Assembly: GCA_040390125.1 (NCBI GenBank)
Contig: JAZJYZ010000001.1
Location: forward strand, 6,428 to 70,427
Source: Patescibacteria group bacterium
GTDB taxonomy: Bacteria; Patescibacteriota; Minisyncoccia; Phycocordibacterales; Phycocordibacteraceae
Length of the DNA stretch: 64,000 nt
Reading direction: 5' to 3'
Part shown: in pieces, positions 2,635 to 53,622 of the stretch
Layout of the letters: every line of letters starts with the position of its first letter
Position numbering within the stretch: the first letter of the stretch is position 1
The notes under the pieces: generated by a model
What the model saw: only the letters and a program-made list of their open reading frames with translations
What the model was told of the DNA's origin: nothing
Databases searched by the model: none
Made by a program: the position numbers and the translations under genes

Positions 2635-3648
2635 ATGAAAAAGAAAATCCTATACGTCATTACGAAATCAAATTGGGGCGGAGCTCAGCGGTACGTTTTT
2701 GATTTGGCAACAAACCTTCCGAAAGAAGACTTTGAGGTGAAGGTTTTCTTTGGAGGCACGGGAGAAGCGGACGCTTCTTATGGAATGCTTGCCACTAACT
2801 TAAGTATAAAAGGAATACATGGGGAACAGTTGCCAAGCTTCATGCGTGATATTTCTATTTCACGAGACTATAAAACTTTAATACGACTAATTGATCTGTT
2901 TAAAAAAGAAAAGCCTGATGTCGTCCACCTAAATTCGTCCAAAGCTGGAGGCATCGGGTCAGTAGCTGCTCGATGGGCAGGAGTGAAAAATATTATTTTT
3001 ACTGTGCACGGTTGGCCTTTTTTGGAAGACCGCTCAATCTTTGCAAAGACATTAATTTGGTTTGCCTCATGGCTTACAGTATTACTTTGCCATAAAGTCA
3101 TTTGCATTTCTGAATATGATCTGCAAATCGCAAGACACATGCCGTTTGTTGGTAAAAAAACAGTTCGTATTTATAACGGCATTGCTCCACTTGAATTAGG
3201 GTCCGGAGAAAAAATACGCACCACCTTCCCCTTTGGTGTACAGATCACTGGAACTATTGGCGAATTGAACAAAAATAAAAATCAACAAGCACTCATTGAA
3301 GAGGCGAAGAATACACCAGACATGTATGTTGCAATCGTGGGGATTGGAGAAAATTACACTACACTTCAAGAAAAAATAATACAATATAACCTACAAGAAC
3401 GGGTCAAGCTGTTTGGTTTTATGCCCGCAAGCGAGGCACTTAAAGGCTTTGATATCTTCACCTTACCATCCATAAAAGAAGGTCTGCCTTATGTGCTCTT
3501 AGAGGCGAGAGCGGCAGATCTTCCGATAGTTGCGAATCGCATCGGAGGCGTGGGTGAGATTTTGGATGCTAAGGACTTGAGTGAATTCTCACTTGAACAA
3601 ATGGTACAAAAAACAACAGCTTTGTATGCCCTGAACTCTGAACTCTGA
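2635..3648 (+). CDS. Glycosyltransferase family 4 (GT-B fold)
   Basis: C-terminal EGLPYVLLEARAADLPIVANRIGG motif typical of GT4. Divergent from the sugar transferase. C-terminus (..ALNSEL*) is encoded by the CTGAACT heptamer repeat. Confidence 0.8.
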   Translation: MKKKILYVITKSNWGGAQRYVFDLATNLPKEDFEVKVFFGGTGEADASYGMLATNLSIKGIHGEQLPSFMRDISISRDYKTLIRLIDLFKKEKPDVVHLNSSKAGGIGSVAARWAGVKNIIFTVHGWPFLEDRSIFAKTLIWFASWLTVLLCHKVICISEYDLQIARHMPFVGKKTVRIYNGIAPLELGSGEKIRTTFPFGVQITGTIGELNKNKNQQALIEEAKNTPDMYVAIVGIGENYTTLQEKIIQYNLQERVKLFGFMPASEALKGFDIFTLPSIKEGLPYVLLEARAADLPIVANRIGGVGEILDAKDLSEFSLEQMVQKTTALYALNSEL

Positions 3649-3653
3649 ACTTA

Positions 3654-4772
3654 TTATCCTATTCCAACCACCTCGTAGCGTTCGTCCTCATGTACGGCTC
3701 GGCCGTACTGTCGCATGGCGTTCACAATGCCTATAAGTGCATAGCTCGTAATAATGTGAGAACCCCCATAACTCATAAACGGGAGCGGAACACCAGTGAC
3801 AGGAAGTAGTCCCACATTCATACCGATGTGAATTATGGAATGTATGCCAAAAAGTGTCGCAACACCCAATGTGAAAAAAGCTTCAAAATTCGTTGCACCA
3901 TTTCGTGCATTTGCCACTAACCTATAAAACAGGAGCATAAACAGCCCGAGTAAGATTAATGTGCCAATCAAGCCCCACTCTTCTGCAAATGCGGCGAAGA
4001 TGAAATCTGTTTGATTTTCAGGAAGAAATTGAAGACGCGACTGGGTACCATACCCTATTCCCTTCCCTAAAATACCGCCAGAGCCAACCGCAACAGTTGA
4101 CTGAAATGCGTTGTACCCTGCACCAGAAATGTCGGCGAGAGGGTGAAGAAATGTGACAATGCGAGCTTTTTGATACGGTGCAAATGCAAAAATCCAAAGA
4201 AGCGAAACTACCGCAATAGCTCCCCCGGCTAGAAGAGCCAGGTGTCGCACCGGAATACCTGCAAGCAAGACCATACCCATCCAAAGACCGGCAACAATTA
4301 CCGCTGAGCCGAAGTCGGGCTGTAAAAATAGTAGTGCGAATATAAAAAACGCATACGCACCCGAAACGAGAATATGTCGCATACGAGCAATTTCAATATG
4401 TCGACGTGAAAAATACTTTGCCAAAACGAGAATAAGCGCAAACTTCGCAGGATCAACTGGTTGTACCGCAAACGCTCCAAGATTAAACCAGCTCTGTGCA
4501 CCCTTAAATACAGAACCTACTGCGAAAAGGAGCGTCAGAAAAAAGATTGCAACTGCATATATAAAAACCACAACACCGGTACGACGCAGAAATCTAAAAT
4601 CAATAGCACTCGCCAGAAAAAAAACAACAAGACCTATACCAAGCCAGATAATCTGATGCGACGCATACTGGTTATCTGCACCGAACCCGAACATGCTTGT
4701 AAGCCCCGCAAGCGAGATGAGTACTGCACTCCCGAGCAAAAGCCAATCAATGCGTCGAAGTATGGAGGTCAT
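3654..4772 (-). CDS. FtsW/RodA/SpoVE family peptidoglycan polymerase (SEDS)
   Basis: About 10 TM helices and SEDS family motifs (GAGYNAFQS, LPENQTDFIFA, PLPFMSYGGS). Start set at the internal ATG 4772, which gives an ATGA overlap with the upstream gene. Confidence 0.85.
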   Translation of the reverse strand: MTSILRRIDWLLLGSAVLISLAGLTSMFGFGADNQYASHQIIWLGIGLVVFFLASAIDFRFLRRTGVVVFIYAVAIFFLTLLFAVGSVFKGAQSWFNLGAFAVQPVDPAKFALILVLAKYFSRRHIEIARMRHILVSGAYAFFIFALLFLQPDFGSAVIVAGLWMGMVLLAGIPVRHLALLAGGAIAVVSLLWIFAFAPYQKARIVTFLHPLADISGAGYNAFQSTVAVGSGGILGKGIGYGTQSRLQFLPENQTDFIFAAFAEEWGLIGTLILLGLFMLLFYRLVANARNGATNFEAFFTLGVATLFGIHSIIHIGMNVGLLPVTGVPLPFMSYGGSHIITSYALIGIVNAMRQYGRAVHEDERYEVVGIG

Positions 4773-5506
4773 TGGGTTCGAGCAACGATATCGGTACGAA
4801 CAATTTCTCGAGCAAACGGCTGTTGCCACGTAAACACCGCATCCTGACTCCCTTTTGGAGGAACGGTACCGAGTTTCGTTTGGGACGCAGCAACGACTAT
4901 GTCATCGGCATCATACAGAAGTGCGGTAAGTACCGTCCCATTCACGGCAGTTGCTGTTCTGTTCTCAATATGAGCTGAGAGTGTAAGTGCGGTTGCATCA
5001 AGTTGTCGAGAAGTGATTTGAATAGGTTCCACAGGTCTTTCCATCCGTGTCCACTGCCCGCCCCCAAAGGTAACAAATGTTCTTCCAGGTATGCGTTCCC
5101 CTGTCAGGATATTAGGTTCAAAAAGAGGAACCACTTCTCCTGGGTAGAGAAACATAACGCCACGACGCTCTGCAATGAGAATATTTTTATCATCAAAAAT
5201 CTGAAACGTGTACGGGAGTGCATCCGTTCCTGCAGAGGATTCTGGATTACGCACAAGTGCAACGGCATGATAGACACCGGGGGCAACTAAAACCGCACGT
5301 GCCCAGAGAGCAGATACCCGAGGAGCTTGGCAAAGTGTTGCACATACCCCCCCACAATCAACACCTTCCTCTGTTTGATTCAAAATGCCATCACTGCACG
5401 TAGCCTTGTGATTAAAAAATAACAACCATCCTCCTCCAACCAGTAAAAGAAGCACGAGGATGATACCCCCCGCATACAGTGCCTGCCGCTTTACTGCCCA
5501 ACGCAT
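4769..5506 (-). CDS. Hypothetical membrane-anchored Cys-rich secreted protein
   Basis: N-terminal TM helix (GGIILVLLLLVGGGWLLFF) followed by a CxxxxxxxxxxCGGVCATLC cluster. No recognisable family. Translationally coupled to rodA. Confidence 0.5.
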   Translation of the reverse strand: MRWAVKRQALYAGGIILVLLLLVGGGWLLFFNHKATCSDGILNQTEEGVDCGGVCATLCQAPRVSALWARAVLVAPGVYHAVALVRNPESSAGTDALPYTFQIFDDKNILIAERRGVMFLYPGEVVPLFEPNILTGERIPGRTFVTFGGGQWTRMERPVEPIQITSRQLDATALTLSAHIENRTATAVNGTVLTALLYDADDIVVAASQTKLGTVPPKGSQDAVFTWQQPFAREIVRTDIVARTQ

Positions 5507-6792: not shown

Positions 6793-6975
6793 TAAAAATT
6801 CGATTCACTCATCACAAAGAAAACACCGAGCACAATATATACGTTATGGATTTCCACGCTTCCCCGCAGAATCGGCGAATTAGTACTTCTTGGCTCAATG
6901 CATTACTGCATGTACACCTAAAGCCTATCAACGTGATCATCTCTCACGGGCCTTAACGATACCTAATCTTGGAGG

Positions 6976-7014
<39 letters not shown>

Positions 7015-7151
7015 CGACATAGCTACCCTGCAATGCCGCGGGCGCGACAACAGGCAGACCAGAGGTCAGTTCATCCCGGTCCTCTCGTACTAAGGACGAC
7101 TCTCCTCAAGTATCAACGCTCATAGTAGATAGGAGACCAACCTGTCTCACG

Positions 7152-7563
7152 CATGTTTTCACGAATTACCTTCGTGCATTGGACTGTAACTTCATCCGTT
7201 CTGGATGTTCAACATTCAGTCTCTAGAGGCAAAGTAGTTTTGAGTATTGAGTTCTGAGTTCAGAGTTAAAACTCTAGACTCGGAACTGGGAACCCTGAAC
7301 TAACTAATTCCCTCGGTATTACCCTTCGCATAAGCGAATTGGGCTTCACCGATATAAGTTGATTTCTTCTTGCATGTTCCCATGCAAGACCGCCGTGATT
7401 GGTTGATTTCTTTTTCTTTTTGTCTGACGAAAGACCTTTTATATATTTCGAACAACTTTCATTTCTCGATTGGGCTCAGACTGTCTAAGCGGGAAAGTAG
7501 AGAGTGGAATGTGGAGAGTAGTTTAACTACCTTCTACACTCTACCTACTACCTTCTAACCTAA
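7152..7563 (-). other. Intervening sequence in 23S rRNA at the E. coli L2593 (I-CreI homing) site; candidate ORF-less group I intron
   Basis: The conserved sequence GGGUU(C/U)AGAACGU|CGUGAGACAG is split by 412 nt. The 5' exon ends in U and the insert ends in G (omega-G-like). The insert has no ORF and contains heptamer repeats plus a GA-rich hairpin element. Confidence 0.55.
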
Positions 7564-7595
<32 letters not shown>

Positions 7596-9937
7596 TTGGC
7601 GAACAGCCAAACCCTTGGAACCTTCTCCAGCTCCGGGATGTGGTGAGCCGACATCGAGGTGCCGAACTCCGCCGTCGCTATGGACGCTTAGGCGGAACTA
7701 GCCTGTTATCCCCAGAGTAACTTTTATCCGTTGGGCTTCCCCTGCATCTAATGCATAAGGTCGGATCACTATGCTCCACTTTCGTGTCTGCTCGACATGT
7801 ACGTCTCGCAGTTAAGCCAGCTTTTGCCATTACACGACCGGCACGGTTTCCATTCGCGCCTAGCTGACCTTTGTAGGCTCCTCCGTTACTTTTTGGGAGG
7901 AGAGCGCCCCACTCAAACTGCCTGCCACGCACTGTCTCCCAGGTGTTTTGCCTGAGGTTAGAAATTGCAACACATAAGAACGGTATTTCACTGATGAGTC
8001 CACGCCAACCAAAATCAACGCTTCAACCTCTCCCGTCTATGCTACGCATATGCATCGCAATCCCAATACGAAGCTACAGTAAAGCTTCTGGGGTCTTTTC
8101 GTCTAACTATGAGTAACCGGCATCTTCACCGGTATTGTATTTTCACCGAGCAAGTCCTCGAGACAGTTTCCAACTCGTTACACCATTCGTGCACGTCTGA
8201 ACTTACCAGACAAGGAATTACGCTACCTTAGGACGATTATAGTTATCGCCGACATTGACCAGGGCTTATAAAGTCCAGCACACAGTATTGCTACCATGCA
8301 CCAACCTTAGTTGACCTTCTGGCATTGGTCAGGTGTCACCCCCTATACATCCTCTTGCGAGTTCGCAGGGAGCTGTGTTTTTGATAAACAGTCGATTGGA
8401 AATCTTTCGCTGCGGCCTCCTAACTTAATAGGAGGCGGGCCTTATCCCGAAGTTACGGCCGCTGTTTTGCCGAGTTCCTTGAGGACCTCTCACTCGTTCG
8501 CCTTGGTCTACTCGACCTGATCACCTGTGTTGGTTTGCGGTACGGTCTCTCGCCAATTAAGCTTAGAAGATTTTCTTGGAAGCGTGCTCCATGGTATTCC
8601 CCCTGACGAATCAGGAAGTTTATGCTTCGCTTGGGGTAATGTATCCCGGATTTTCCTGAAGATACGCCCTCACGCTACAAACACAAATCCAATTATGTGC
8701 ACCATGTACAACCCTCCGTCTCTCCATCACACTGGCGCGAGGCTAGGGAATATTAACCCTATGTCCATCGCGTTCGGCTTTCGCCATTTGCTTAGGCCCG
8801 GCTAACCCTTGGCTGATTATCAGTGCCAAGGAAACCTCGATCTTTCGGCGTACGGGGTTCTCACCCGTATTGTGGTTACTTGTGCCGGCATTCTCACTTC
8901 CAAACGCTCCAGAATGGGTCACCCCTTATCCTTCATTGCGGTTTGGAACGCTCTCCTACCGCTTGATGCAGACGGATCCGCATTCAAGCCCTCAGTTTCG
9001 GTACCGCGCTTAGCCCCGATTATCTTCGGCGCAGAAATTCTCGATGAGTGAGCTGTTACGCTTTCTTTAAATGGTGGCTGCTTCTAAGCCAACATCCTCA
9101 CTGTCTTAGAACTTCCACTTCCTTGTGATGCACTCAGCGCGGATTTAGGGACCTTAACTTGAGATCTAGGCTCTTCCCTTCTCGACATATGGAGCTTAGC
9201 CCCCATCGTCTAACTGCCTGACTTATACTCGCCGGTATTCGGAGTTTGATAGGATCAACGAGATTGCTCCCTGTTTGATCCTTCCAGTGCTCTACCCCCG
9301 GGAGAAACATCAGACGCCAGCCCAAAAGCTGTTTCGGAGAGAACCAGCTATTACCAGGTTCGATAAGCTTTTCACTCCTTGTCACAAGTCATCCCAAGAC
9401 GTTATACGATCAACGGGTTCGGGCCTCCATCTGTCTTTCGACAAACTTCACCCTGCTCATGACAAGCTCACCTGGCTTCGGGTCTTACGTACGCGACTTT
9501 TCGCGCTATTCACACTCGGTTTCCCTTCGGCTCCGGGCTAACGCCCTTAGCCATGCCGTGTACGTAAACTCGCCGGCTCATTCTTCAATAGGCACGCCGT
9601 CGAGGTGCAAGCACCTCTTCGACTCCTTGTAGATGTGTGGTTTCAGAACTATTTCACTGTCCTCATCGGACTACTTTTCACCTTTCCCTCACGGTACTGG
9701 TTCACTATCGATCTCTATAGATATTTAGCCTTGCCGGTTAGTCCCGGCAGATTCATCCAAGCTATTCATGTCTCGGATTACTCAAGAACGATAACAAGAA
9801 AGTGACTTTTGTTTCGCGTACGGGACCGTTACCCTCTAGGGTTCTGCTTCCCAGCAGATTCCGCTACAAAAATCATTGATGACTTCCCTTCCATAAATGG
9901 AACGCTATCGCCTTACAACCCCGCACACAGCACATTG

Positions 9938-10022
9938 CATGCGATGCACTTTAGAAAGTAGAAGATAGTGGGTAGAAAGTAGTTCAGAAAACTACTCTCG
10001 ACATTCCACTCTCTACTCTCTA
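9938..10022. repeat. About 80-nt hairpin repeat element inserted at a helix tip in 23S domain I
   Basis: About 85% identical to 7478..7556 inside the intervening sequence, in inverted orientation (AGTAGAGAGTGGAATGT[GC]GAGAGTAGTTT..ACTAC..TTCTAC). Flanked by complementary arms GUGCGCAGCACAGUGCAU / AUGCAAUGUGCUGUGUGCGG. Confidence 0.5.
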
Positions 10023-10653
10023 AGCATCCTATGCACTGTGCTGCGCACGGTTTGGGCTTCTCCCGTTTCGCTCGCCGCTACTCGGGGAATTCCAGAATCC
10101 CGGTCCCTTTGCAAAATAAATTTTGCAGAGAGACCGAGATATCCTGTTGGTCTCTTTTCCTCTAGGTACTGAGATGTTTCACTTCCCTAGGTGCGCTCCT
10201 TTGACACACGCCAAAGGTATCTTCCGTAAGAAGATGGGTTTCCCCATTCGGACATTTTCGGATCAATGCTTGCTCGTCAGCTCCCCGAAACTTTTCGCAG
10301 ACAGGCTACGTCCTTCATCGCTCTATAGAGTCTAGGCATCCACCACACACCCTTCAAACTTCCACGAGGAAGCTTGAAAACCACATAACGATTCTGTTCA
10401 ATTACGAACAGTGATTTTTTATTATGCTCGGTGTTCTCTTTGTGATGAGTTGTCAATGAACTGATGAATGAGAGAACAAAAAAGGCCGCTTTTGGCGACC
10501 TAGATACAGGAGCTTAAAAGCTACTGTCTAGCGTCGCATTTCGCCTCTAGTGTTAGTACTCATAAACCTTTGAGTAGAATACGCCCCGAGCTGGGTTATG
10601 TCAAGGAAATGCAGGCTCGTTTGGGAAAATTGACCCCTGAAAAGAGCCCCAAA

Positions 10654-13483: not shown

Positions 13484-13563
13484 GTTTCAGCTGCCAGCTG
13501 TCGGCTTTCAGCTTAAGCTTCTGAATTAAAAGCTAAAAGCTGGCACCTGGAAGCTGGAAGCTT
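13484..13563. repeat. AGCT-based heptamer tandem repeats between rplL start and rplJ end
   Basis: GGTTTCAGCTGCCAGCTGTCGGCTTTCAGCTTAAGCTTCTGAATTAAAAGCTAAAAGCTGGCACCTGGAAGCTGGAAGCTTT. Confidence 0.9.
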
Positions 13564-19066: not shown

Positions 19067-19802
19067 AGATACAAGAATGATTTTCTAATTTTTGACACCA
19101 CACTGTTTTACGTTTGAATTAAATAAACACGTAAATCAATGGGTGGGTGCGTGGACGATAGATTATTCGTTCGACCGAATAATCCACGACCCGCCGCATA
19201 CCTGTTAATAAGCAGACTCGGGAGTCGTCCTTTCTGTCATCGATTGCTTGTCAAAAGAAATAAAATTTCTTTTGACTTCGCTCGCTCGACAGTAAGCACA
19301 ACTAACTAACTTTCTGTCTTGTGCACCTCTCTAGAAAAATTTTCTAGATTTGGTTCAGAAGACAGCACAACTAACTTCCATCAACCCGTAACATCAATCG
19401 ATGTGTCCGGGAACAATGGCAAAAAAAGAATGGGGTGCAGGAGTACAGACGTGGTGGGAAGGTGCTTCCTTACAGGATGTGCACATGCTTCATCTTAATG
19501 AAGAAGCCAAGGCGCACGCTTGAGCATCTCTGCTTTGCGTTCCGGGATATTAAAGATGTCAAAGTTCTGGTTGGTCTGAAATCGGCTTCGTGCCACAACA
19601 ACACGCAACCGAACACCCAGTGCGGGAGTTCACCTATTATACGTCTCCACTCCGCTCTCTAATTAGAACAGAGGGTTCGTACATGTGGACAACATGAGAT
19701 TAGCAAAAAGCCCGTTTCCGGGTCTTCTACTATCTATGGGGTTACTCCGTCCACACCGGGCAATACTATATGAAATAAGGCTGAGAAGCAAGCGAAACAT
19801 CT

Positions 19803-19914
19803 AAAGCTTCCAGCTGTCAGGTTCCAGCTTTCAGCTTTTGGCGAGAAAGTGCTTCCGAGATGCACCCCCTCCTCCCTGTAAGCTAGAAGCTAGAAGCTAG
19901 AAGCTAGAAGCTTT
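19803..19914. repeat. AGCT-heptamer repeats including perfect (AGCTAGA)x4
   Basis: AGCTTCCAGCTGTCAGGTTCCAGCTTTCAGCTTTT ... GTAAGCTAGAAGCTAGAAGCTAGAAGCTAGAAGCTTTC. Confidence 0.9.
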
Positions 19915-19921
19915 CAAAGCA

Positions 19922-26569: not shown

Positions 26570-26611
26570 AGCTAGCTTTCAGGTGCCAGCTTCCAGCTTT
26601 TAAGATTGAAA

Positions 26612-27654: not shown

Positions 27655-27752
27655 GATTAGAAGGTTGAAGGTTGAGAGTGGAGGGTAGTAAACAACTGAA
27701 TGATTGATTGATTTTCCATTATCTACATTCTACCCTCTACTTTCTACTCACT
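27655..27752. repeat. GA-rich/CT-rich arm hairpin element (GAGAGTGGAGGGTAG family) in rpsF-ssb spacer
   Basis: GAAGGTTGAAGGTTGAGAGTGGAGGGTAGTAAAC...CCATTATCTACATTCTACCCTCTACTTTCTACTC. Family members at 7478..7556, 9938..10022, 35499..35600, 49292..49378 and 50895..50925. Confidence 0.7.
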
Positions 27753-28283: not shown

Positions 28284-28356
28284 TGTCCGAAGAGCGTACC
28301 ATGGCTCGCCCGTTGAGGCAACGGGCGACTAGCTTTCAGCTTTCAGGTGCCAGCTT

Positions 28357-29166
28357 TCAGCTTTTGAGACCAAACATCCGGAGGGCGTTTTGGACGGTAG
28401 CTTCTCGAGCGACCTCATCTGAAACGCTGCGAATTGAAGCGATAGCCCCGACTATGTACTTCACGTATGAGGGTTCGTTCCTCCTCCCCCTAAAAGGGTT
28501 TGGAGTAGCGTACGGAGCATCAGTTTCAGTCATTAACATCTCAAGTGGTGCAAATTTCACTACATCATCGTATTCACGGGCAAAAGTGAGCACGCCAGTG
28601 AATGATGTTGTGAAGCCAATGGTGTAAAACCGCCTTGCGATATCAACGGTTCCAACAAAAAAATGGATATTGCCTCGAAGCTTTTCACCCACTTCTCTTT
28701 TCTTTGATTCCAGCATTACAAGCATATCGAGGTATGTGTCGACAGTACCTCGAGAAGGCCTACCGTGAATCATTAATGGTTTGTCGTATTTAATTGCAAA
28801 ATCGACGTGTTTCTCAAACTCCCGCATCTGGCGTTTTTTCCCAGCCTCTCCGTCTTTGAGATGGAAATAATCTAGTCCGCACTCCCCTATTCCCACGACT
28901 TTCGGATTCAGAGTAAGTGATTTGTATTCGCTCTCTGAAAAAGTCTCGTTCTCTGTATCATTGGGATGCAAACCAACTGTCGCAAAAAAACCCTCCTTCC
29001 CTTCTCCAAAATTCACTGCCTCTTCTGAGGTTGCTTTATTTACCCCGACCGTGATAGTCCAAACACTGTCATCACGCATCCGTTGCAAAACTTCCTCAAG
29101 GTCTTGATCGTATTCCTTGAACGTAACGTGAGAATGAATATCGAAATAGCGTGGCACACCATGCAT
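28357..29166 (-). CDS. tatD: TatD family metal-dependent hydrolase (DNase)
   Basis: N-terminal FDIHSH motif, and GECGLDYF, IHGR, TDAPY motifs of the TatD/TIM-barrel family. Start taken at the internal ATG 29166. Confidence 0.85.
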   Translation of the reverse strand: MHGVPRYFDIHSHVTFKEYDQDLEEVLQRMRDDSVWTITVGVNKATSEEAVNFGEGKEGFFATVGLHPNDTENETFSESEYKSLTLNPKVVGIGECGLDYFHLKDGEAGKKRQMREFEKHVDFAIKYDKPLMIHGRPSRGTVDTYLDMLVMLESKKREVGEKLRGNIHFFVGTVDIARRFYTIGFTTSFTGVLTFAREYDDVVKFAPLEMLMTETDAPYATPNPFRGRRNEPSYVKYIVGAIASIRSVSDEVAREATVQNALRMFGLKS

Positions 29167-35625: not shown

Positions 35626-36210
35626 CTACAGTCCACTCTCCGAAATAGCTTCGTTGATGCGGCGTACCAAAGTCGGGCGAGATTCACGTACAGCTTTTAG
35701 AGTTCCTATATCATACGCAATATCCAAAAACGCCTGTGTGGCTAGCTCTTCTCGAACATACCCCAATGCTGAAAGCACCCGAAACACCGTCACACATTCT
35801 GCCTCCAAAACATATTCCTGATCCATCGGAGGTAGTGCGGTAAAAAAACCAAAAAGTGCACTAAAAAGATACGGGTCACTCCCCTCACCACGAATAAATT
35901 GCCGTACGACTGCGATTATTCTGGCGGAAGCTTCTTGGGCGTCACTCTTTCCTGAAAGGGAAAAGTAAGAATTTTCAGTATTGGTGGCACCAATGATGCG
36001 CCACACATCACGCCCTTTTACTAACGTAAAAACTCCAGTTGTCCCTACTTGGAGATGCGGGCGGAGTTTAGAGCGTTCTTCTCTAGCGCTCTTCGCAAGA
36101 GCGGAAACAAGACCTAAGGAGTCTGTATATAAAGAAATGCGAACACTTCCCTCACCGGCGGAGCGTCTCGCAACCACAATGCCACGAGCTGTAACCTCAC
36201 GAACGGACAT
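35626..36210 (-). CDS. recO: DNA repair protein RecO (probable)
   Basis: N-terminal OB-fold pattern (ARGIVVARRSAGEGSVRISLYTDSLGLV) and size are consistent with short RecO proteins. No zinc motif. Overlaps the ileS 3' end. Confidence 0.5.
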   Translation of the reverse strand: MSVREVTARGIVVARRSAGEGSVRISLYTDSLGLVSALAKSAREERSKLRPHLQVGTTGVFTLVKGRDVWRIIGATNTENSYFSLSGKSDAQEASARIIAVVRQFIRGEGSDPYLFSALFGFFTALPPMDQEYVLEAECVTVFRVLSALGYVREELATQAFLDIAYDIGTLKAVRESRPTLVRRINEAISESGL

Positions 36211-39200
36211 CGAGAGATTCTCCTGTTTCCTTACCACTAAGGTTTGTCATTTTCATAAGATCATTCCAGTTAGCCTCAACTAAATCTGACTTCTCTGAAG
36301 GGAAAATAAGAGTCGCTGACTCTTTTGGTTGAAGGTTTGCTTTCTTTCTCAAGTCCTGAATCTCACGAACGAGCTCTCGAAACTCCCCTTCTCTCTTTAG
36401 TGTCTCGGTAATGTTTGTATCAAGAACGACTTCGCCTTTGGGAACAACTTCATCAATAACTACATTTTTAACATTCAACTCATCCTTAACAAGCTCCAAT
36501 AGTTCCGTCCTCCCTCTAAGCTCTGGACTCTGAACTCTGAACTCATTCAGCGGTTGCCTCACCTTTACCCCCGCCTTCTGTCTCGCTTCAAGCCCTAAAG
36601 AAACTACTTTGCGTACTTCTTCCATCTCTCGAAGCAACACTTCATCTACCCTTAGAGCACGAGGCCATTCTGAGAGATGTACACTCTCTGGCGCACCATC
36701 TGCTTTCACTTTTTGGTAGGCATATTCAGCAGTGAACGGAACGAAGGGAGCAGAAACTTTTGCAAAAGTTTCTATAACATGACGCAATGTCGAAAGTGCG
36801 TGAGCCCCATCTTCTCCGGTTTCTTTAAAACGGTCACGAGAACGTCGAAGAAACCACGTTGAAAAATCGTCAACAAATAATGCGAGCGGGCGTGTTGCAC
36901 GATCAAGCTCGTACGCATCCATACCCTTTTCGACTTCACTAATTACTTCACTCATGCGAGAAAGAATCCATCTATCTAAGGGGTGCGTACTTGGAGCTGT
37001 AGCCAGAGTACTCTCATTTTTATACAATTCATAAAAAGAAATCACATTGAGAAATCTTCCGATAAGTTTTGAAGCAATTTCTCCCACTCCTTTTTCTGAA
37101 AAATTTAAATCTTCTGCACGCATCAATGGTGACGCCAACAAATAATAACGAATAGCATCTGCGCCGTATTTTTCCAACACTTCAACGGGATCAGGATAAT
37201 TTTTCAGACGTTTGGACATTTTTTGCCCATCTTCAGCGAGAACAATTCCGTTCACAATCACATTTTTATACGTCGCCTTGCCGAAAAGCCCAACCCCTAA
37301 AACTAAGAGCGAATAAAACCAGCCTCTTGTCTGGTCGAGACCTTCTGCAATAAAGTCTGCTGGGTAGCCAACGCCTCCAGTTTTCAATTTCCAGTTTTCA
37401 ATTTTCAATCCGGACTTTGGATCAAAAACATCTTTGTTTTCAAACGGGTAATGATTCTGCGCATACGACATTGAGCCAGACTCAAACCAGCAATCAAAGA
37501 CGTCGTGTACCCTCTCAAGCCTCGTGCCGTCAGAGGCAACAAGAACAACCTCGTCGATATAAGGACGATGATAATCAAGTTCAAAGTTTTCGTTGTGTGG
37601 AAGTGGAGTAAAAGGAAACTCTATTATTTCAGCATTTTTTAGAATCGGAAGTGGTCCATTTTTTTCAAGACTCCGAAATGTAAAACCTCCCGCAACAAAA
37701 CTAAGTCCACGTGCTGCCCCCGCATGAGTTATAAATACTATGTTTTTGTTAGCGTATTTTTTTTCAATTTCATACAGAAAATTCCCAGTTCTCTCTACTA
37801 ACTGTGCAAAATTTTCTCCACTGGAAAACTGTTTGTGCGGACTGTATATATAATCATGTTCATAATATTGCAACATGGTTGTAAGAGGTTTGCCTTCATA
37901 TTCAGTACTTTCCCGCCATTCAACAATACGCTCATCGTAAATTACTCTATCAATCGGGAAACCGCTTTGTTTACAAAATATTTCGACCGTTTCTTTAGTT
38001 CTGAGCAAAGGCGAAACAAAAATAAAATCAATCTTTTCTTTAAAAGCGGAGGCTGACTTTAACACCTGCTCTTTCCCTAGTTCCGTTAATGAAGCATTGA
38101 GTTCACCGGACTGTGTCCAAACTTGCATCGTGTTATTTTCAGCCTGACCATGTCGCATCACAAAATACTTGTTGCCTGATTTTTTTGTGTGCGACTTCAA
38201 CTCGTCGAGTGAACCTATGAAAGTATTTTCTTTTGTCTTTGGATTCCGCCATACGGGAATTGGCGCACCCCAATACCGAGCTCGTGAAATAGCCCAATCC
38301 CTAGCATTCTCAAGCCAATTGCCGAAGCGCTTCTCGCCGACCTCTTTCGGCACCCAGTGTATCTTTTTATTTTCGGAGACGAGCTTGTCTCTAAACTTCG
38401 TCACTTCTACAAACCACGATGACGATGCGTAATTCAAAAGAGGGGTATCGCAACGCCAACAATGCGGATAGGAATGTATTATTTTTTCCTTTGCAAAGAG
38501 TAACCCCTTCCCTGCAAGATATTTAATAACCGCAACATCGGTCGACTGTGAGTCATCTTTCGGCTTTGCTTGGAGTCCCTTGAAATCAGAAACAACATCG
38601 ACAAAAAAACCATCCTTGTCGACATGGTGCACTATCGGGATTCCTTCTTTTTGTGCGAGCTCCAAGTCCTCAGCACCGAATGCAGGAGCTAAGTGCACCA
38701 ATCCTGTTCCGCTATCATTAGTCACATAGGGAGCGTGATATACCTTCCACGCTCTCTCCTTCCCTTTGATGTTATGGTCTGCAAAATAAGAAAATGGCGG
38801 CTTGTATGATTTCCCAACAAGTGCGCTTCCAAGAAATTCTTTTTCTATTTTGTAACCAACTTTAATTACTTCCAACCTGTCTTTCGCAAGGATATATTTT
38901 TCATCCCCCACTGAAATCTTCACATAGGTAAAATCTTTATGTACCGCAGCCGCCATATTTCCAGGCAGAGTCCACGGAGTTGTTGTCCAAGCTAAAAGAA
39001 AAGTCCCCGGTTCATCAATCAGTTCCAACTTTACCGTGACAGAAATATCCGTGATGTCTTTGTATCCTTGTGCAACTTCAAAGTTAGAAAGCGTAGTGCC
39101 ACAGCGAGGGCACAGATGCATTGCTTTAAATCCTTCATACACCAAACCCTTCTTATGGAGATCATTAAATGCCCACCACACGCTCTCCGTGTATGTCGCA

Positions 39201-39670
39201 TCCATCGTCCGATAGTCATTCTCCATGTCTACCCACCTGCCGAACCTTGGAATAATTGCCTTCCAATCGTCTGAATACCGAAGTACTGCTTTACGAGCCG
39301 CTTCATTGAATGTCGCAACACCTAACGTTTCAATATCTCGCTTGGTGGCAAGACCAAGTTCTTTCTCTATTTGGTTTTCAAGTGGCAAGCCGTGGCAATC
39401 CCAACCCCAACGTCGAGGAACTCGGTAGCCCTGCATCGTCTTATAGCGGGGAATAGCATCCTTTATGGTGCCTGCAAGTATGTGCCCGTAGTGCGGGAGC
39501 CCTGTAGCAAACGGGGGGCCATCATAAAAAACAAACTCACCTTTTGGAGCCTCTTTTGAAAGAGTTTTTTCAAAAATCTCTTGTTCGTTCCAGAATTTTA
39601 AAATCTCCTCCTCCCGCTTGGCAGGCTCGCTTTTTTCTCTTTGCTCCCCTTCAGACATATAGTAAGACAA
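36197..39670 (-). CDS. ileS: Isoleucyl-tRNA synthetase (type 2) carrying an inserted histidine-phosphatase (PGAM-like) domain
   Basis: HIGH motif (PHYGHIL), CP1 editing motif TTPWTLPGN, RYWGAPIPVW, type-2 element DYHRPYIDEV, KMSKS (KMSKRLKN). About 185 extra residues lie between IPVW..SHTKKSGN and PLPHNENFELDYHRPYIDE. Confidence 0.9.
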   Translation of the reverse strand: MSYYMSEGEQREKSEPAKREEEILKFWNEQEIFEKTLSKEAPKGEFVFYDGPPFATGLPHYGHILAGTIKDAIPRYKTMQGYRVPRRWGWDCHGLPLENQIEKELGLATKRDIETLGVATFNEAARKAVLRYSDDWKAIIPRFGRWVDMENDYRTMDATYTESVWWAFNDLHKKGLVYEGFKAMHLCPRCGTTLSNFEVAQGYKDITDISVTVKLELIDEPGTFLLAWTTTPWTLPGNMAAAVHKDFTYVKISVGDEKYILAKDRLEVIKVGYKIEKEFLGSALVGKSYKPPFSYFADHNIKGKERAWKVYHAPYVTNDSGTGLVHLAPAFGAEDLELAQKEGIPIVHHVDKDGFFVDVVSDFKGLQAKPKDDSQSTDVAVIKYLAGKGLLFAKEKIIHSYPHCWRCDTPLLNYASSSWFVEVTKFRDKLVSENKKIHWVPKEVGEKRFGNWLENARDWAISRARYWGAPIPVWRNPKTKENTFIGSLDELKSHTKKSGNKYFVMRHGQAENNTMQVWTQSGELNASLTELGKEQVLKSASAFKEKIDFIFVSPLLRTKETVEIFCKQSGFPIDRVIYDERIVEWRESTEYEGKPLTTMLQYYEHDYIYSPHKQFSSGENFAQLVERTGNFLYEIEKKYANKNIVFITHAGAARGLSFVAGGFTFRSLEKNGPLPILKNAEIIEFPFTPLPHNENFELDYHRPYIDEVVLVASDGTRLERVHDVFDCWFESGSMSYAQNHYPFENKDVFDPKSGLKIENWKLKTGGVGYPADFIAEGLDQTRGWFYSLLVLGVGLFGKATYKNVIVNGIVLAEDGQKMSKRLKNYPDPVEVLEKYGADAIRYYLLASPLMRAEDLNFSEKGVGEIASKLIGRFLNVISFYELYKNESTLATAPSTHPLDRWILSRMSEVISEVEKGMDAYELDRATRPLALFVDDFSTWFLRRSRDRFKETGEDGAHALSTLRHVIETFAKVSAPFVPFTAEYAYQKVKADGAPESVHLSEWPRALRVDEVLLREMEEVRKVVSLGLEARQKAGVKVRQPLNEFRVQSPELRGRTELLELVKDELNVKNVVIDEVVPKGEVVLDTNITETLKREGEFRELVREIQDLRKKANLQPKESATLIFPSEKSDLVEANWNDLMKMTNLSGKETGESLDVRS
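37610..38170 (-). other. Histidine phosphatase / phosphoglycerate-mutase-family domain inserted in IleRS
   Basis: Contains the RHG catalytic motif (FVMRHGQAENN), LTELGKEQ, SPLLRTKET and the second His motif FITHAG, in the canonical order of branch-1 histidine phosphatases. Confidence 0.75.
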
Positions 39671-41918: not shown

Positions 41919-43586
41919 TCACATCGCCTCAGGAGCCCGTATTCCAAGAACGTAGAGGCCGTTTTTCATTGTTAGTGCAAAAGCACTTGTAAGAGCGAGT
42001 TTGTAGGATTCGTACTCATCTCCGATGATGCGTCCTTGTGCGTACCAACCATTAAATGCACTCGCAAGCTCCGTAAGGTACGTGGTGACGTGGTGTGGCT
42101 CGTATTCCTTCCCTGCTCTTTCCACGACTTCAGGAAAGCGATACAGAAGTCGCTCGAGCGAGGAAACCGTTTCGGGAAGGCTTCCAGCTTTCAGCTTCCA
42201 GCTTCCAGCTTTCTTCAAGACCGATTGGGAGCGAGCATAAGAATATTGCAAATACGGGCCGGAGTCGCCTTCAAATGAAAGTGAGGCTTCTGGATCAAAG
42301 ATAATATTTTTTCCCGTTGACTGTTTCAACACCGAATACTTAATTGCAGAAACAGCCACTGCATCTGCGACATCACGTTTTATTTCTTCAGACTCAAACA
42401 CACGCCCCTCCATTTTTGCCAATGCTTTTGCTCGCATCTCTTCTATCAAGGATTCTCCGGTAATTATGTTTCCTTTTCTCGATGACATCTTGCCTGTTGT
42501 TAGTTGCATCATGCCAAATACCACGTGCGTGTAGCGCCCATGAAGAGCCGGCATTAATTCTGCAAGCGATGATTCAACAACCTTAAAATAAGCGTCCTGC
42601 TCCACAGCGACAGTGGTTATGTTCAAATCAAAAGGCGATGTGTGCAACTTTGCCTCTACCAACCCAAGCTCTTTTGCTTCATAGGTTGGTGTTCCTTTGG
42701 ATGTTAAAAACACTCGAGTGTGCAAACCTACTTTCTCGCCTTTGTATACAACGGCTCCGTCACTTTTCTCAAAAATCCCCTTCTCCAAACCTTCTCTCAC
42801 AAGTTCGACACCTCGCCTCCATACTTCACTCTCAAAGAAATAGCGATCAAACCGTGAACCTAGAATAGTGTAGAGATCATCAAAGTGTGCGATTGAAGTT
42901 TTACGGCCTTCTGTGTAGAGGTCATGAAGTGTAGGATCATTTTCATATAAACGAACATTGAGAGAGTCGATTTCTTTTTTCGCTTCCGGGTCGTCCTCAT
43001 ACGCACTGTTACCTGCAACGTACGCCGCACCAAGTGCTGAAATATCTTTCGGATCAAGATGCTCCTTCATGATGCCCCATATGCACTTAGCAACATGGGG
43101 GCCGATATCGCCCTGATAATTTGCTCGGAATATTTTAGCCCCTGAGGCTTCTACTAAACGGGACACCGTTTCACCTACAGCCGTCGACATCAAGTGCCCA
43201 ATATGGAATGGCTTGAAAGGATTTGGCTGTGAATACTCAACAATGATCTTCTTTCCTTTAAGAGTTGCATTACTGCCCCACAACTCTCCCCTCTCAAGAA
43301 TTCCCAAAACACTGTCAGAAAAGAAAGCACGTGTGAGATGGAAGTTAATGAATCCAGCACCTGCAACGTCTATTTTCTCTACGCCCTCTATTGTTCCTAG
43401 GGTTGCGACAATCTCTTCCGCAAGTGTACGAGGATTCTTGCCTGCTTTTTTTGCAACAGCGAGTGCAATGTTTGTGGAATAATCCCCGTGTGAGAGCTCA
43501 CTTGGGTGCTCAAGCACTACCTCGCCCTCAAGCCCGAGAGTCTTTAGCGAATGCTGTATTGCTTCAATAATTGCCTCAGAAATCAT
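41919..43586 (-). CDS. argS: Arginyl-tRNA synthetase
   Basis: Class I HIGH (PFHIGHLMST), catalytic core and C-terminal DALR anticodon-binding region. The ORF extends to 43751, but the conserved N-terminus begins at MISEAIIEAI (ATG 43586). Contains an in-frame heptamer-repeat insertion at 42181..42215. Confidence 0.9.
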   Translation of the reverse strand: MISEAIIEAIQHSLKTLGLEGEVVLEHPSELSHGDYSTNIALAVAKKAGKNPRTLAEEIVATLGTIEGVEKIDVAGAGFINFHLTRAFFSDSVLGILERGELWGSNATLKGKKIIVEYSQPNPFKPFHIGHLMSTAVGETVSRLVEASGAKIFRANYQGDIGPHVAKCIWGIMKEHLDPKDISALGAAYVAGNSAYEDDPEAKKEIDSLNVRLYENDPTLHDLYTEGRKTSIAHFDDLYTILGSRFDRYFFESEVWRRGVELVREGLEKGIFEKSDGAVVYKGEKVGLHTRVFLTSKGTPTYEAKELGLVEAKLHTSPFDLNITTVAVEQDAYFKVVESSLAELMPALHGRYTHVVFGMMQLTTGKMSSRKGNIITGESLIEEMRAKALAKMEGRVFESEEIKRDVADAVAVSAIKYSVLKQSTGKNIIFDPEASLSFEGDSGPYLQYSYARSQSVLKKAGSWKLKAGSLPETVSSLERLLYRFPEVVERAGKEYEPHHVTTYLTELASAFNGWYAQGRIIGDEYESYKLALTSAFALTMKNGLYVLGIRAPEAM

Positions 43587-43651
43587 ACTTTCGCCATCAT
43601 ACCTCGCTAGAGCATGTCTTAAAACGGGGGTGTCCAAGCCGAGACACCGAC

Positions 43652-43897
43652 TCACCTCTGGAACCAACCATGAACACATGAAGGCTTGTCGTGACTTACG
43701 ACTCCCGCTATGTTTATTGTTGGTTCGCCATGCCCTATTGATTCTCCACATCCCCTACATACGGGATAGTGCTCTTTAGGGGCAATCGTTGATTTTTCTT
43801 TTGTCGAGCCAATCATGCTTAGGAGCGTATTGAGGTTCGACTTAGTAAGTGGCCACCCTATAACGACTGGAAGTTGCCCATGATTTTTTTCTTTCAT
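43652..43897 (-). CDS. Possible small Cys-containing ORF (81 aa) upstream of argS
   Basis: ORF has a CRGCGESIGHGEP segment. Its stop is followed immediately by a GGTGTC/GACACC hairpin plus U-run. Could be spurious. Confidence 0.2.
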   Translation of the reverse strand: MKEKNHGQLPVVIGWPLTKSNLNTLLSMIGSTKEKSTIAPKEHYPVCRGCGESIGHGEPTINIAGVVSHDKPSCVHGWFQR

Positions 43898-48592: not shown

Positions 48593-49291
48593 ATGGCACT
48601 CTCCGACAAAAAAATACTTGAACACATGAAAGTGGGTACGGTCGTCATCGAGCCGTTTGACCGTGCAAATCTTGCAACGTCGAGTTACGACGTAACTCTC
48701 GGCGAGTGGTATTTCCGTGAACAGCCACCGCAAGGGCACAAGAAGGTCTACAACGTGTACAGCAAATCCGACACTGAAATTGTCTGGGACACCAAACCTC
48801 GCCGCGCAAAAACTGCCAAGGAAGCTCTGAAAAACTTTAACTTCTCGTTCGATGGCATCAGACCAGACGATAAAGTTATTTTGATGGAGCCAGGTGAAAC
48901 AATCCTTGCGCACACACAAGAGTTCATTGGTGGCAGAGAGACGGTAACAACCATGATGAAAGCACGCTCTTCAATGGGACGGAATTTCATCAACGTCTGT
49001 AAATGTGCGGGCTGGGGAGACGTTGGCTATACCAACCGATGGGTAATGGAAATTTCGAATGCATCGCAACACTACATGATTCCAATTGTTGTAGGGCGCA
49101 GGATTGCACAGTTAGTATTCTTTGAAACAGGTCCTATTCTTGCTGGTGACTATACAAAAACAGGCAAGTACCAAACAACAAACAACATCAAAGAACTAAA
49201 GAGGTCGTGGAAACCGGAAACAATGCTCCCAAAACTCTGGGCTGACAGGGACATCAAGAAGCACCATCCATGGCACCAGAAAGGAAAGTAG
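48593..49291 (+). CDS. dcd: dCTP deaminase family protein (dUTPase superfamily)
   Basis: N-terminus ILSDKKILEH..G.V.IEPFD....SSYDVTLG and central beta-jelly-roll motifs typical of Dcd/Dut. A 232-aa length suggests a Dcd-type enzyme with C-terminal extension. Confidence 0.75.
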   Translation: MALSDKKILEHMKVGTVVIEPFDRANLATSSYDVTLGEWYFREQPPQGHKKVYNVYSKSDTEIVWDTKPRRAKTAKEALKNFNFSFDGIRPDDKVILMEPGETILAHTQEFIGGRETVTTMMKARSSMGRNFINVCKCAGWGDVGYTNRWVMEISNASQHYMIPIVVGRRIAQLVFFETGPILAGDYTKTGKYQTTNNIKELKRSWKPETMLPKLWADRDIKKHHPWHQKGK

Positions 49292-49375
49292 TAGGTAGAA
49301 TGTAGTGTGTAGTATGAAGAAAAGAAACCATGCAAAGTTGTTTGACGACCCTCTACGTTCCACTTTCTACTTACT

Positions 49376-50976: not shown

Positions 50977-51396
50977 CTATTTCACATCTATACCCATCGA
51001 GCGGGCAGTGCCTGCGATGATTTTCATTGCTTGCTCAGTATCTTTGGTATTCAAGTCAGGGATTTTCTTCTCAGCAATTTCCTTGAGTTGTGCTTTTGTT
51101 ATTGAACCTGCTTTTACCGTAGGAACCTTACCCGAACCTTTCTCGAGTCCTGCCCATTTCAAAAGAAGACGTGACGCTGGAGAAACTTTGACAATGAACG
51201 TGAACGAACGGTCGTCCATGACGGAAATCTCAACAGGAAGTATGTCCCCCATCTGGTCTTGGGTTGCAGCATTGAACTGCTGAACAAACTGACCAATGTT
51301 AACGCCAGCTGGACCCAATGCTGTTCCTACTGGAGGCGCAGGCGTTGCCTTACCACCCGGAACCTGAAGCTTAATTTTCTTTACTACTTTTGCCAT
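50977..51396 (-). CDS. rplK: 50S ribosomal protein L11
   Basis: [29 protein letters not shown] is the L11 N-terminal signature. Confidence 0.92.
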
Positions 51397-52207: not shown

Positions 52208-52627
52208 TTATTCTATTCCTTCTATGGTTTTCGCAATAGGAAGACAGACGGCTACCGATCCTGCAACCCCCTTGCTACGTTCTTGGTCTACACATGCATC
52301 AAGCAACCTTTGGTATGCTTGTCGGGATCCATCACTTCTCCGTCTTGCAACCTCAATTGCCGCCTGTCTGCGTTCTTCGTCCGCTCGGATTTGTGCTCGC
52401 CTTGCATCTTCTGCCGCTTCACGCCGAGCTCTTGCCTCATTTTCTCGATCTTCTTGCTTGTTTCTTACGTATTCCTCAACTGCATTTCCTAAGACACCCC
52501 CCCAATCCGGCTCTGCATGTGCAGCTGGTGCACCCCCAAGAGAAAGTACTGAAGCAACAATAGCAAATCCCTTCCGGAAACCTTTACCTCGGGATATGAA
52601 AGTTGGAACAGGTGCAAATTCATTCAT
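52208..52627 (-). CDS. Hypothetical secreted protein with charged coiled-coil region
   Basis: Signal peptide KGFAIVASVLSLGGAPAAHA|E, then a highly charged Arg/Glu/Ala-rich helix (EDRENEARARREAAEDARRAQIRADEERRQAAIEVARRR). Start uncertain (ATG 52714 or 52627). Confidence 0.45.
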   Translation of the reverse strand: MNEFAPVPTFISRGKGFRKGFAIVASVLSLGGAPAAHAEPDWGGVLGNAVEEYVRNKQEDRENEARARREAAEDARRAQIRADEERRQAAIEVARRRSDGSRQAYQRLLDACVDQERSKGVAGSVAVCLPIAKTIEGIE

Positions 52628-52700
52628 GTCGAGTACGGTAACACTCCTTACCCATGATGTCAATAGCATCAAAACTATACGATGAATCGTATAGTTTTGA

Positions 52701-52729
52701 AAAAATTCCGGCATACGCCGGAATTTTCC
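52701..52729. terminator. Hairpin terminator (AAAAATTCCGGCATACGCCGGAATTTT)
   Basis: Perfect stem with A and T runs, 3' of the SIMPL gene, immediately followed by a (CTCTGAA)n tract. Confidence 0.55.
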
Positions 52730-52796
52730 TCTGAACTCTGAACTCTGAACTCTGAACTCTGAACTCTGAACTCTGAACTCTGAACTCTGAACTCTC
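52729..52796. repeat. Heptanucleotide tandem repeat (CTCTGAA) x ~9.5
   Basis: Read directly: CTCTGAACTCTGAACTCTGAA... perfect copies between the SIMPL gene and the promoter region of the secreted coiled-coil protein gene. Confidence 0.95.
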
Positions 52797-52797: not shown

Positions 52798-53622
52798 TTA
52801 CCGTATCTCGTACGTCACCGAGACATTTACTACAATTTCGTTCTCTCCAGTTGGAACTGATATTTCAGGGCGTGGCGCAGTGGCACTGGCGCTCACTGCC
52901 ATGTCTTTTGCGTAGTAAATTGGAGATCCGCCGTTTTCAGAATAATTAACTACCCGCACCAAGCGGACACCAAGATCCCCTGCAAGACCTTTTGCTTGTG
53001 CCCGAGCTTTGTCTATTGCCTCTTTACGAGCCTCTGCTTTCAATGCATCTGGATCGTCAACGGAGAAGTTAGGGCCGTAGAGGTTTGTGACTCCAGCATC
53101 ACCCAACACTGAGAGGACTTTGCCGGTATCATCAATTTTTCGCACCGTTACTTCAACCGTCTCTGAAGCGGTGAAGCCAATTATCTTACTTTCTTGATTG
53201 TACGGACAAGGAACCCCTGTGTAGCAAGGCGCTGGTTGCGAGTAACGAGGTGAAATGTTGTATGAACTTGTCTGAATGTCTTTATCAGCAACCTTCAGAT
53301 CCTTTAAGAGAGCGAGCGCAACATTCACTTTTTTCGCCACACCATCTTGTGCATGTGAAGAGGTGTCTGCATCTTCAGAAATAGTAAAAGATATAGTGGC
53401 AATGTCTGGCACTGCCGACACCTTACCTTCTCCCATGACAGTGATGACGTTAGAAGGTGGCTCTGAAAGTGTATCGAAGTTGATAATTGCATTAACTGCC
53501 TTTGCACCAACAAAAATCGTTGCAACGATAAGAAACGCTGCAAATAATTTCATAACGAGTCGACTCTTGAGAAGGCCGTGATGATGCGGATGATCATGCA
53601 TGTCTTTATGTTCGTCCATCAT
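52798..53622 (-). CDS. SIMPL/DUF541 domain protein (BP26/OMP28-like)
   Basis: His-rich N-terminus, TM anchor, then the SIMPL pattern (VSAVPDIATISFTISEDADTS..AQDGVAKKVNVALALLKDLKV..DIQTS). Confidence 0.7.
   Translation of the reverse strand: MMDEHKDMHDHPHHHGLLKSRLVMKLFAAFLIVATIFVGAKAVNAIINFDTLSEPPSNVITVMGEGKVSAVPDIATISFTISEDADTSSHAQDGVAKKVNVALALLKDLKVADKDIQTSSYNISPRYSQPAPCYTGVPCPYNQESKIIGFTASETVEVTVRKIDDTGKVLSVLGDAGVTNLYGPNFSVDDPDALKAEARKEAIDKARAQAKGLAGDLGVRLVRVVNYSENGGSPIYYAKDMAVSASATAPRPEISVPTGENEIVVNVSVTYEIR

Follow-up and report, generated by a model that had tools for sequence, protein, structure and literature searches.

The analysed stretch of DNA, hereafter the window, comprises 64,000 nucleotides (nt) of contig JAZJYZ010000001.1 (positions 6,428 to 70,427; assembly GCA_040390125.1) with a GC content of 45.7%, and its host is a metagenome-assembled genome of Paceibacterota-like Patescibacteria. 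The current study deals with tandem repeats of seven-nucleotide units, here called heptamer arrays, and in particular with those located inside the genes argS and ileS for the arginine and isoleucine tRNA ligases (ArgRS, IleRS) and at the end of a glycosyltransferase gene. The argS gene (41919..43586, minus strand) is the probable coding sequence within the open reading frame (ORF) 41919..43751 of the same strand; it encodes an arginine--tRNA ligase of 555 amino acids (aa) with homologues in the PDB. The protein is 100% identical to P0001, which is located on a 748,944-bp Patescibacteria contig and whose 90% cluster contains only this same contig, with an alternative start. Tandem Repeats Finder (TRF) places the argS array at 42180..42211 (minus strand; unit GCTTCCA, 4.6 copies, 92% matches). 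On the sense strand it reads AAA GCTGGAA GCTGGAA GCTGAAA GCTGGAA GCC, coding for KKAGSWKLKAGSL, and corresponds to residues A460-S469 (AGSWKLKAGS) in the context KK-AGSWKLKAGS-L. In the AlphaFold2 (AF2) model of ArgRS, whose mean predicted local distance difference test score (pLDDT) is 89.7, these residues open a coil (461-475; pLDDT ~66) that connects two helices (443-460 and 476-481) within the anticodon-binding domain, in agreement with the surface loop proposed in an earlier note on this DNA. In the solved structure of the P. horikoshii enzyme, this linker has 11 additional residues.

The ileS gene (36197..39658, minus strand; 1153 aa) harbors two arrays. Site 1 (36510..36544, minus strand; CTCTGAA with 3.4 copies at 36521-36544 according to TRF) is located between the Anticodon_1 and DUF5915 regions and reads GAGTTCA GAGTTCA GAGTCCA GAGCTTA GAGGGAG on the sense strand, coding for EFRVQSPELRG. 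The argS and ileS arrays are situated mid-gene, 260-330 nt before the stop codon. Site 2 of ileS (37376..37409, minus strand) has a period of 14 nt with 2.1 copies in TRF and consists of TTGAAAA/CTGGAAA units; its sense strand TTGAAAA TTGAAAA CTGGAAA TTGAAAA CTGGAGG codes for LKIENWKLKTGG, and the peptide includes LKIENWKLKTG. The fourth array, (CTGAACT)x3 at 3631..3651 (plus strand; 3.0 copies in TRF), stands at the 3' end of a GT4-type glycosyltransferase gene (2635..3648, plus strand; 337 aa) and occupies the space between it and the convergent gene 3654..4829 on the minus strand. Both TRF and the sequence itself corroborate the earlier note in that the repeats at argS, ileS and the glycosyltransferase C-terminus are real, in frame and placed as it had described; ileS site 2 is absent from it.

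Heptamer arrays are abundant throughout the window, where TRF detected about 33 with a period of 7 or 14 nt and with units such as GCTGGAA, CTCTGAA and AAGCTAT. A greedy ORF-based gene call covers 87% of the window; only about five of the 33 arrays lie within coding sequences and about 28 in the remaining 13% without a called ORF, and many of them adjoin or overlap stop codons, short intergenic gaps being filled by arrays. Perfect runs of at least 17 nt were found nine times for period 7 and never for the periods 8, 9, 11 and 12. The tandem seven-nucleotide units, the excess of period 7 and the mainly non-coding location near ORF ends are all typical of bacterial heptanucleotide microsatellites. 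The pattern GCTGGAAGCTGGAAGCTG (GCTGGAA type, up to three mismatches) has 25 matches at 12 loci, of which argS is the only one within a real gene, and the pattern CTCTGAACTCTGAACTCT (CTCTGAA type) has 14 matches at four loci, namely the glycosyltransferase tail, ileS, the intergenic array 52729-52795 and a locus within the gene for 23S rRNA. Compared with the shuffle expectations of 0.03 and 0.08, respectively, these numbers document that in-gene and intergenic arrays have their unit families in common, as the earlier note had supposed. Period-7 arrays of other units are present on many related Paceibacterota contigs, and heptanucleotide microsatellites are a lineage-wide phenomenon that resembles the excess of heptameric simple sequence repeats (SSRs) in Nostoc and Xanthomonas.

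The in-gene repeats had been interpreted as lineage-specific insertions that are tolerated as short additional peptides. Alignment of the orthologs speaks against this proposal for argS and ileS site 1, because neither segment adds length to the protein. The ArgRS linker from GPYLQY to EPHH comprises 53 residues in the window, compared with a median of 55 in the orthologs, and a shorter one is found in only five of 78 orthologs; in an alignment of 60 orthologs it falls into the shortest class. Judged from this below-median length, the argS array is not a lineage-specific insertion and rather occupies a linker of ancestral length. The same applies to ileS site 1, because the segment from VRQPL to DELNVK has 26 residues, exactly as many as in the five closest relatives. 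A lineage-specific gain of peptide does exist at ileS site 2, where the window has 13 aa (LKIENWKLKTGGV) and L086, L001, L084, L102, L082 and L087 have 6 aa (WLKKSR or similar). The protein alignment and a codon comparison with these six close orthologs show a true in-situ net gain of 21 nt, equivalent to three units or 7 aa, and the units resemble duplications of the local TGG...AAG AAA sequence. In the glycosyltransferase, the extra peptide is likewise present, albeit as a tail of 6 aa past the conserved ...ALY and not as an internal insertion. The gene ends with GCC CTG AAC TCT GAA CTC TGA, so that both ALNSEL and the TGA stop codon (3646-3648) derive from the array: the ORF reads six codons into the 3' array until the TGA of the unit comes into frame. 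Sixty orthologs mostly carry 0-4 residues at this place, and a few have longer tails of up to 11.

The DNA of the orthologs stems from independent assemblies (L numbers), the informative ones having been retrieved by a metagenome scan and two exact look-ups; an ArgRS-alignment scan of genome contigs yielded mostly distant relatives, with only L001 close among the matches listed. In the array-bearing ArgRS orthologs, the array begins directly after the conserved ..VLKK codons, and each has a unit of its own: (GCTTCAA)x4 in L082 (60% ArgRS identity to the window), (CTCAGAA)x4 in L081 (72%), (CTCACAC)x3 plus two degenerate units in L087 (67%), and (AATTACG/T)x4.9 in L009 (52%). Among the four closer sequences (window, L082, L081 and L087), three have four units and L087 three perfect plus two degenerate ones, with a common start point. 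A survey of 108 ArgRS genes (188 kb) revealed five strong period-7 tracts, all at one alignment position, and none for the periods 4, 5, 8, 10, 11 and 13. The arrays of the window and L082 are equal in start, end, codon phase and copy number, and their units differ at the same two positions (GG vs TC), except for the variant unit GCTGAAA of the window. The recurrence of the same two differences from unit to unit requires homogenisation within the array. In most ArgRS orthologs, this linker lacks both array and palindrome; the linker of L102 (71% identity) resembles a decayed array of the window type. In a distance tree, each array-bearing lineage is placed beside relatives without one, a pattern which suggests that the ArgRS arrays either are old and often decay or have arisen repeatedly.

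Some ArgRS linkers without a heptamer array exhibit another conspicuous structure, i.e., a perfect DNA palindrome of 16-30 nt with the centre (C/G)ATATAT(G/C), coding for ..IY... It was found in L001 (~11503-11522), L084, L083, L088, L090/L094, L092, L095, L002 and L005, and its arms differ between the lineages (e.g., TGATTTGATATATCAAATCA, ACACTATCATATATGATAGTGT and GGATATACCTCCATATATGGAGGTATATCC). In the 108 ArgRS genes, 19 perfect palindromes have a length of 16 nt or more; ten of them are located in the array linker, and a second cluster is found near reference residue 150.

The comparison of IleRS provides a corresponding picture. At site 1, 14 of 56 orthologs reach a score of at least 14/21 for period 7, compared with 0-1 for the periods 5, 8 and 10. 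The units include GAGTTCA in the window, CTTTCAG in L084, TTGAAGC in L087, ACAGTGA in L081, GAATCAA in L068, AAAATCA in L007, and AATTACG in L009 and its relatives. With a relaxed threshold, the 56 IleRS genes contain 28 tracts of period 7, compared with 2, 2, 2 and 5 for the periods 5, 8, 10 and 11, and these tracts cluster at four recurrent sites near the reference residues 260, 763, 891 and 1050, the site near 763 being confined to the window. Three internal hypervariable segments were recognized in ArgRS and eleven in IleRS, and most of the array sites coincide with them. An AATTACG-derived tract (TTACGAATTAAAAATTACGAATTAGGAATTGA.., peptide LRIKNYELGIEY) is present in L021, L074, L015 and L009 at the site homologous to 36510-36544. 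The finding that several distant orthologs carry arrays of other units at exactly the same positions indicates that the sites are old or recurrent repeat niches and not the result of recent invasions of genes.

Within protein genes, the arrays are confined to hypervariable, unstructured linkers. Taken together, the in-gene repeats are probably solitary representatives of the genome's own heptanucleotide microsatellites (GCTGGAA and CTCTGAA types), which survive only in permissive linkers and are homogenised in place. A mutational process with a step of 7 nt, for which replication slippage and intra-array gene conversion are candidates, alone or in combination, would create and homogenise arrays wherever the sequence is unconstrained. 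Heptameric SSRs are over-represented in many bacteria, and a hypothesis of slippage related to the polymerase footprint has been proposed (PMC4692102). Within genes, selection would act as a threefold filter, i.e., the net change of length would have to be a multiple of three (three units correspond to 21 nt or 7 aa), the unit would have to be free of sense-strand stop codons in all of its rotations, and the site would have to tolerate any peptide. Site 2 of ileS, whose additional 21 nt seem to stem from a duplication of the nearby TGG..AAG AAA, would represent the growth step of this process, and the glycosyltransferase, whose ORF reads into the 3' array until a TGA is in frame, its other outcome. 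The encoded peptides would be by-products; the periodicity of the DNA persists and the amino-acid sequence does not.

Several observations weigh against this explanation. A few unit families occupy many loci of one genome, such as the GCTGGAA type with its 12 loci in 64 kb, and some families are common to related genomes, namely AAGCTGA, which is found in L086, and AATTACG in L009, L021, L015, L074 and L030. Purely local slippage would not predict shared families, which is a hint of spread between loci or of a sequence-specific drive or selection. The AATTACG tract is furthermore near-identical in the DNA of L021 and L074, although the IleRS proteins are only 49% identical and the codons on either side vary without restriction. 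Among the ArgRS and IleRS orthologs compared, none was seen to have its linker reduced by 7 aa, so that contraction to a single unit as a route of homogenisation is unsupported. Finally, L001 and L084 agree in the copy number of one intergenic array whose flanking regions are 88.8% identical between them; the arrays are accordingly not obviously hypermutable.

The prevalence and sharing of a few unit families and the near-identical AATTACG tract leave room for two other readings, namely spread between loci and a function or drive at the level of the nucleic acid. It is rather unlikely, yet deserves consideration, that heptamer tracts are maintained at the nucleotide level at fixed sites of essential genes across the Paceibacterota, with the ATATAT palindromes as equivalents in other lineages, and that they represent a functional or selfish DNA or RNA element that a clade-specific factor recognises or that spreads by biased gene conversion or uptake. 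If this were true, the coding sequence of these reduced genomes would contain a second code of periodic nature, and its unit would evolve together with the lineage, the protein linker being the tolerated host of the element. In its functional version, which we regard as unlikely, a 7-nt tract would be recognised by a lineage-specific protein or RNA or be retained by biased recombination or uptake (molecular drive), and the palindromes of the ArgRS linker would be the alternative form in other lineages. The conservation of the position across orthologs of 50-70% identity, the clade specificity of the unit families and the near identity of the AATTACG tract would fit, as would the accumulation of ArgRS palindromes with different arms in the very same linker and the hairpins that intergenic arrays form at gene ends. 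However, the units at one and the same site differ completely between orthologs, and most orthologs have neither array nor palindrome there. The in-gene arrays are moreover solitary, and no RNA structure beyond that of shuffled sequences was detected in them (z=+0.44 for argS and +0.48), and the sites are simply those few segments of the proteins that are hypervariable.

Microsatellites born and homogenised in place must also be weighed against the invasion by a mobile element, i.e., a dispersed short repeat that inserts into genes and is tolerated as an extra loop. Such in-frame insertions of repeats into housekeeping genes are known from Rickettsia palindromic elements (RPEs; PMC10969869), and the distribution of the same unit families over many loci, the AATTACG unit in both argS and ileS of L009 and the extra gene flanked by arrays on both sides at a conserved junction of L086 would be compatible with it. 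This scenario is nevertheless improbable, because argS and ileS site 1 show no net insertion, and the sole true one, the 21 nt of ileS site 2, resembles a local duplication. Between orthologs the units differ, and position and copy number remain constant. Reading of the sequences by eye, with no dedicated repeat search, revealed neither terminal inverted repeats nor target-site duplications nor a fixed element length at the four in-gene arrays. RPEs and the window arrays have in common that repeated DNA stands in frame at structurally permissive positions of housekeeping genes (PMC10969869), but the former are discrete elements of ~150 bp that add residues and encode a conserved peptide, whereas the latter measure 20-35 nt, mostly add no residues, lack element ends and code for peptides unrelated to one another. 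With an ArgRS linker below the median and an ileS site 1 of the same length as in the relatives, the arrays do not belong to the RPEs or to the miniature inverted-repeat transposable elements.

A role as contingency locus, in which slippage would switch the expression or the protein length of argS, ileS or the glycosyltransferase within populations, is very unlikely. The precedent is neuO of the E. coli K1 phage CUS-3, whose coding 5'-AAGACTC-3' repeat is translated only if the copy number is divisible by three (PMC13001214), and the length of the glycosyltransferase tail would indeed vary with the copy number. Both the neuO repeat and the window arrays are coding heptanucleotide tandems whose frame is kept in steps of three units or 7 aa (PMC13001214). 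But neuO is dispensable and phase-variable, with 3-53 copies at its 5' end that switch it on or off, whereas the essential genes of the window carry their arrays of only 3-5 copies mid-gene. Both argS and ileS are present only once within the 64-kb window, and a change by one unit would result in a lethal frameshift. The constancy of the copy number, with four units in three ArgRS orthologs and an equal intergenic array in the relatives L001 and L084, points in the same direction; the arrays are not members of the phase-variable contingency loci. Chance, an artefact of codon usage or a repeat selected as a peptide can practically be dismissed: a loose pattern L-x-[IVF]-x-[NSQ]..E-L in the IleRS site 1 peptides and the conservation of LRIKNYELGIEY in one clade would favor the peptide, but the period comparisons in ArgRS and IleRS and the 14-25 matches against a shuffle expectation of 0.03-0.08, without signal for other periods, refute these explanations, the ArgRS-site peptides AGSWKLKAGS, SQNSELRTQN and ASSFKLQASS are unrelated, and a period of 7 nt cannot result from amino-acid selection, because successive units are read in different frames, so that the arrays are no protein-level tandem repeats either.

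Sequences of the short tandemly repeated repetitive (STRR) type with the units CCCCAGT, TTGGTCA and CAACAGT are characteristic of heterocyst-forming cyanobacteria, and STRR arrays reportedly also occur in the RNase P RNA gene of these bacteria. Their presence in a variable region of that essential RNA gene would parallel the arrays in the 23S rRNA insertions of the window. Despite this similar behaviour, the window arrays are not STRR sequences in the strict sense, as their host is a member of the Patescibacteria and their units are GCTGGAA, CTCTGAA and AAGCTAT. In Neisseria and Haemophilus, genome-specific DNA uptake sequences and uptake signal sequences form inverted-pair terminators between genes, and their in-gene copies favour poorly constrained protein segments. 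These motifs are single 9-12-mers, in contrast to the tandem heptamers of the window, which show no sign of a link to DNA uptake. A close similarity exists with the heptameric SSRs of Nostoc and Xanthomonas (GGGAATC, GGGGAYT), which are over-represented relative to other long periods (PMC4692102). Like the window arrays, the heptameric SSRs of cyanobacteria and Xanthomonas are mostly intergenic near ORF ends, with some stop-overlapping and some intragenic copies and sometimes with inverted pairs; about four units are preferred, and relatives agree in the positions but not in length and sequence (PMC4692102). The window differs from Nostoc, Xanthomonas and the STRR hosts by its phylum and by other units that are not G-rich, hence an explanation via G-quadruplexes does not apply. 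It also differs from the STRR and SSR cases in that arrays are found in homologous linkers of aminoacyl-tRNA synthetases across deep divergence, where the unit has been exchanged but the length has not changed.

The excess of heptameric SSRs, copies inside genes or overlapping stop codons, the conservation of position with variation of sequence, and coding heptanucleotide repeats are already known (PMC4692102, PMC13001214). Our literature search found nothing on heptamer repeats in Patescibacteria, and as far as it reached, three aspects appear to be new, i.e., their occurrence in this phylum, the persistence of arrays at the synthetase linkers over deep divergence with exchange of the unit and retention of the length, and the perfect palindromes with an ATATAT centre that share the ArgRS linker with the arrays. 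With position and copy number kept and the unit replaced, the in-gene arrays offer a natural test system for concerted evolution under the constraint of a reading frame, and they extend the heptameric repeat excess of bacteria, which is still unexplained, to a lineage whose genomes are very small (here a contig of 0.75 Mb). For annotation and phylogeny, it should be noted that a linker peptide, a C-terminal tail or an expansion segment of rRNA can be a by-product of repeats in these genomes, and masking in alignments is advisable.

The 23S rRNA gene (6863..10366, minus strand) is an example of such expansions, as it comprises 3504 nt compared with 2925 positions of the bacterial model and is thus ~580 nt longer. 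Three arrays are located within its insertions. The one at 9992..10022 (minus strand) lies inside an insertion of 113 nt (~9928-10040) that replaces the 5-nt loop of a hairpin in the 5' domain. Another one at 7236..7267 (minus strand), which belongs to the CTCTGAA/CTCAGAA family, is found in an unalignable stretch of ~400 nt near the 3' end of the gene (~7150-7556, after model position ~2632). Further arrays of this stretch are located at 7407-7421 and 7492-7519, and the array 7526-7562 stands at its 5' edge. The 23S insertions did not match any intron family, and in an Rfam scan of the window only rRNA and tRNA families reached the gathering threshold, hence the arrays correspond to no known RNA family.

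The largest intergenic array of the CTCTGAA family (52729..52795, plus strand) has 9.6 perfect copies and fills the gap between the genes 52208..52714 and 52798..53622, both on the minus strand. The CTCTGAA unit contains TGA on the plus strand and no stop codon on the minus strand, which explains why it is coding in the minus-strand gene ileS and terminates the plus-strand glycosyltransferase gene. In several other genes, too, an adjacent array provides the stop codon and as many as five of the final codons (28357-28364, 62458-62478, 50977-50979, 27744-27748 and 49289-49325), for example ..AAA AGC TGA in (AAAGCTG)n or a 14-nt unit AGCGTAGAGGGCAG with 2.2 copies. Tracts of (TAGGGGT)n and (GTAGnnn)n provide a TAG every 7 nt at gene ends. 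A general function of the arrays 3' of genes as universal stops in every frame was rejected, as the unit contains a sense-strand stop codon in six of 15 cases, compared with 34% of random heptamers; units with a stop codon are not statistically enriched.

Inverted pairs of intergenic GCTGGAA/AGCTTTC-family arrays form long imperfect hairpins with z values from -3.3 to -5.4 at 11960-12060, 13478-13568 and 19800-19915. One inverted pair of GCTGGAA-family arrays between convergent ORFs (13485..13562) folds into a single long hairpin (z=-4.0 on the plus and -3.8 on the minus strand). Such pairs may serve as register-independent terminators between genes. The complex motif CAGGTGCCAGC (GCTGGCACCTG) recurs within three separate GCTGGAA-family arrays (13539-13556, 26580-26597 and 28337-28354), thereby suggesting that these arrays are related by copying and did not originate independently at each locus. 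The intergenic array shared by L001 (6790-6920) and L084 (4830-4960) resides in a divergent gap of 45 nt that consists nearly entirely of (AGCGTAT)x3.7 with equal copy number. At the homologous junction of L086 (~2700-3120), an extra small gene is found between an AGCTTTC-type array and (AAGCTGA)x3, the latter representing a unit family in common with the window.

A further peculiarity of ileS is a His_Phos_1 domain (RHG motif, E=2e-25), which is embedded in the catalytic domain of IleRS at residues 499-659. The same architecture was found in L081 and L082 and therefore represents a lineage-wide fusion. The ArgRS of L081 is 72% identical to that of the window and its IleRS only 46%, whereas other relatives range from 62 to 75% for both proteins; judged from these identities, two IleRS lineages seem to coexist within the clade of the window, possibly as a result of exchange.

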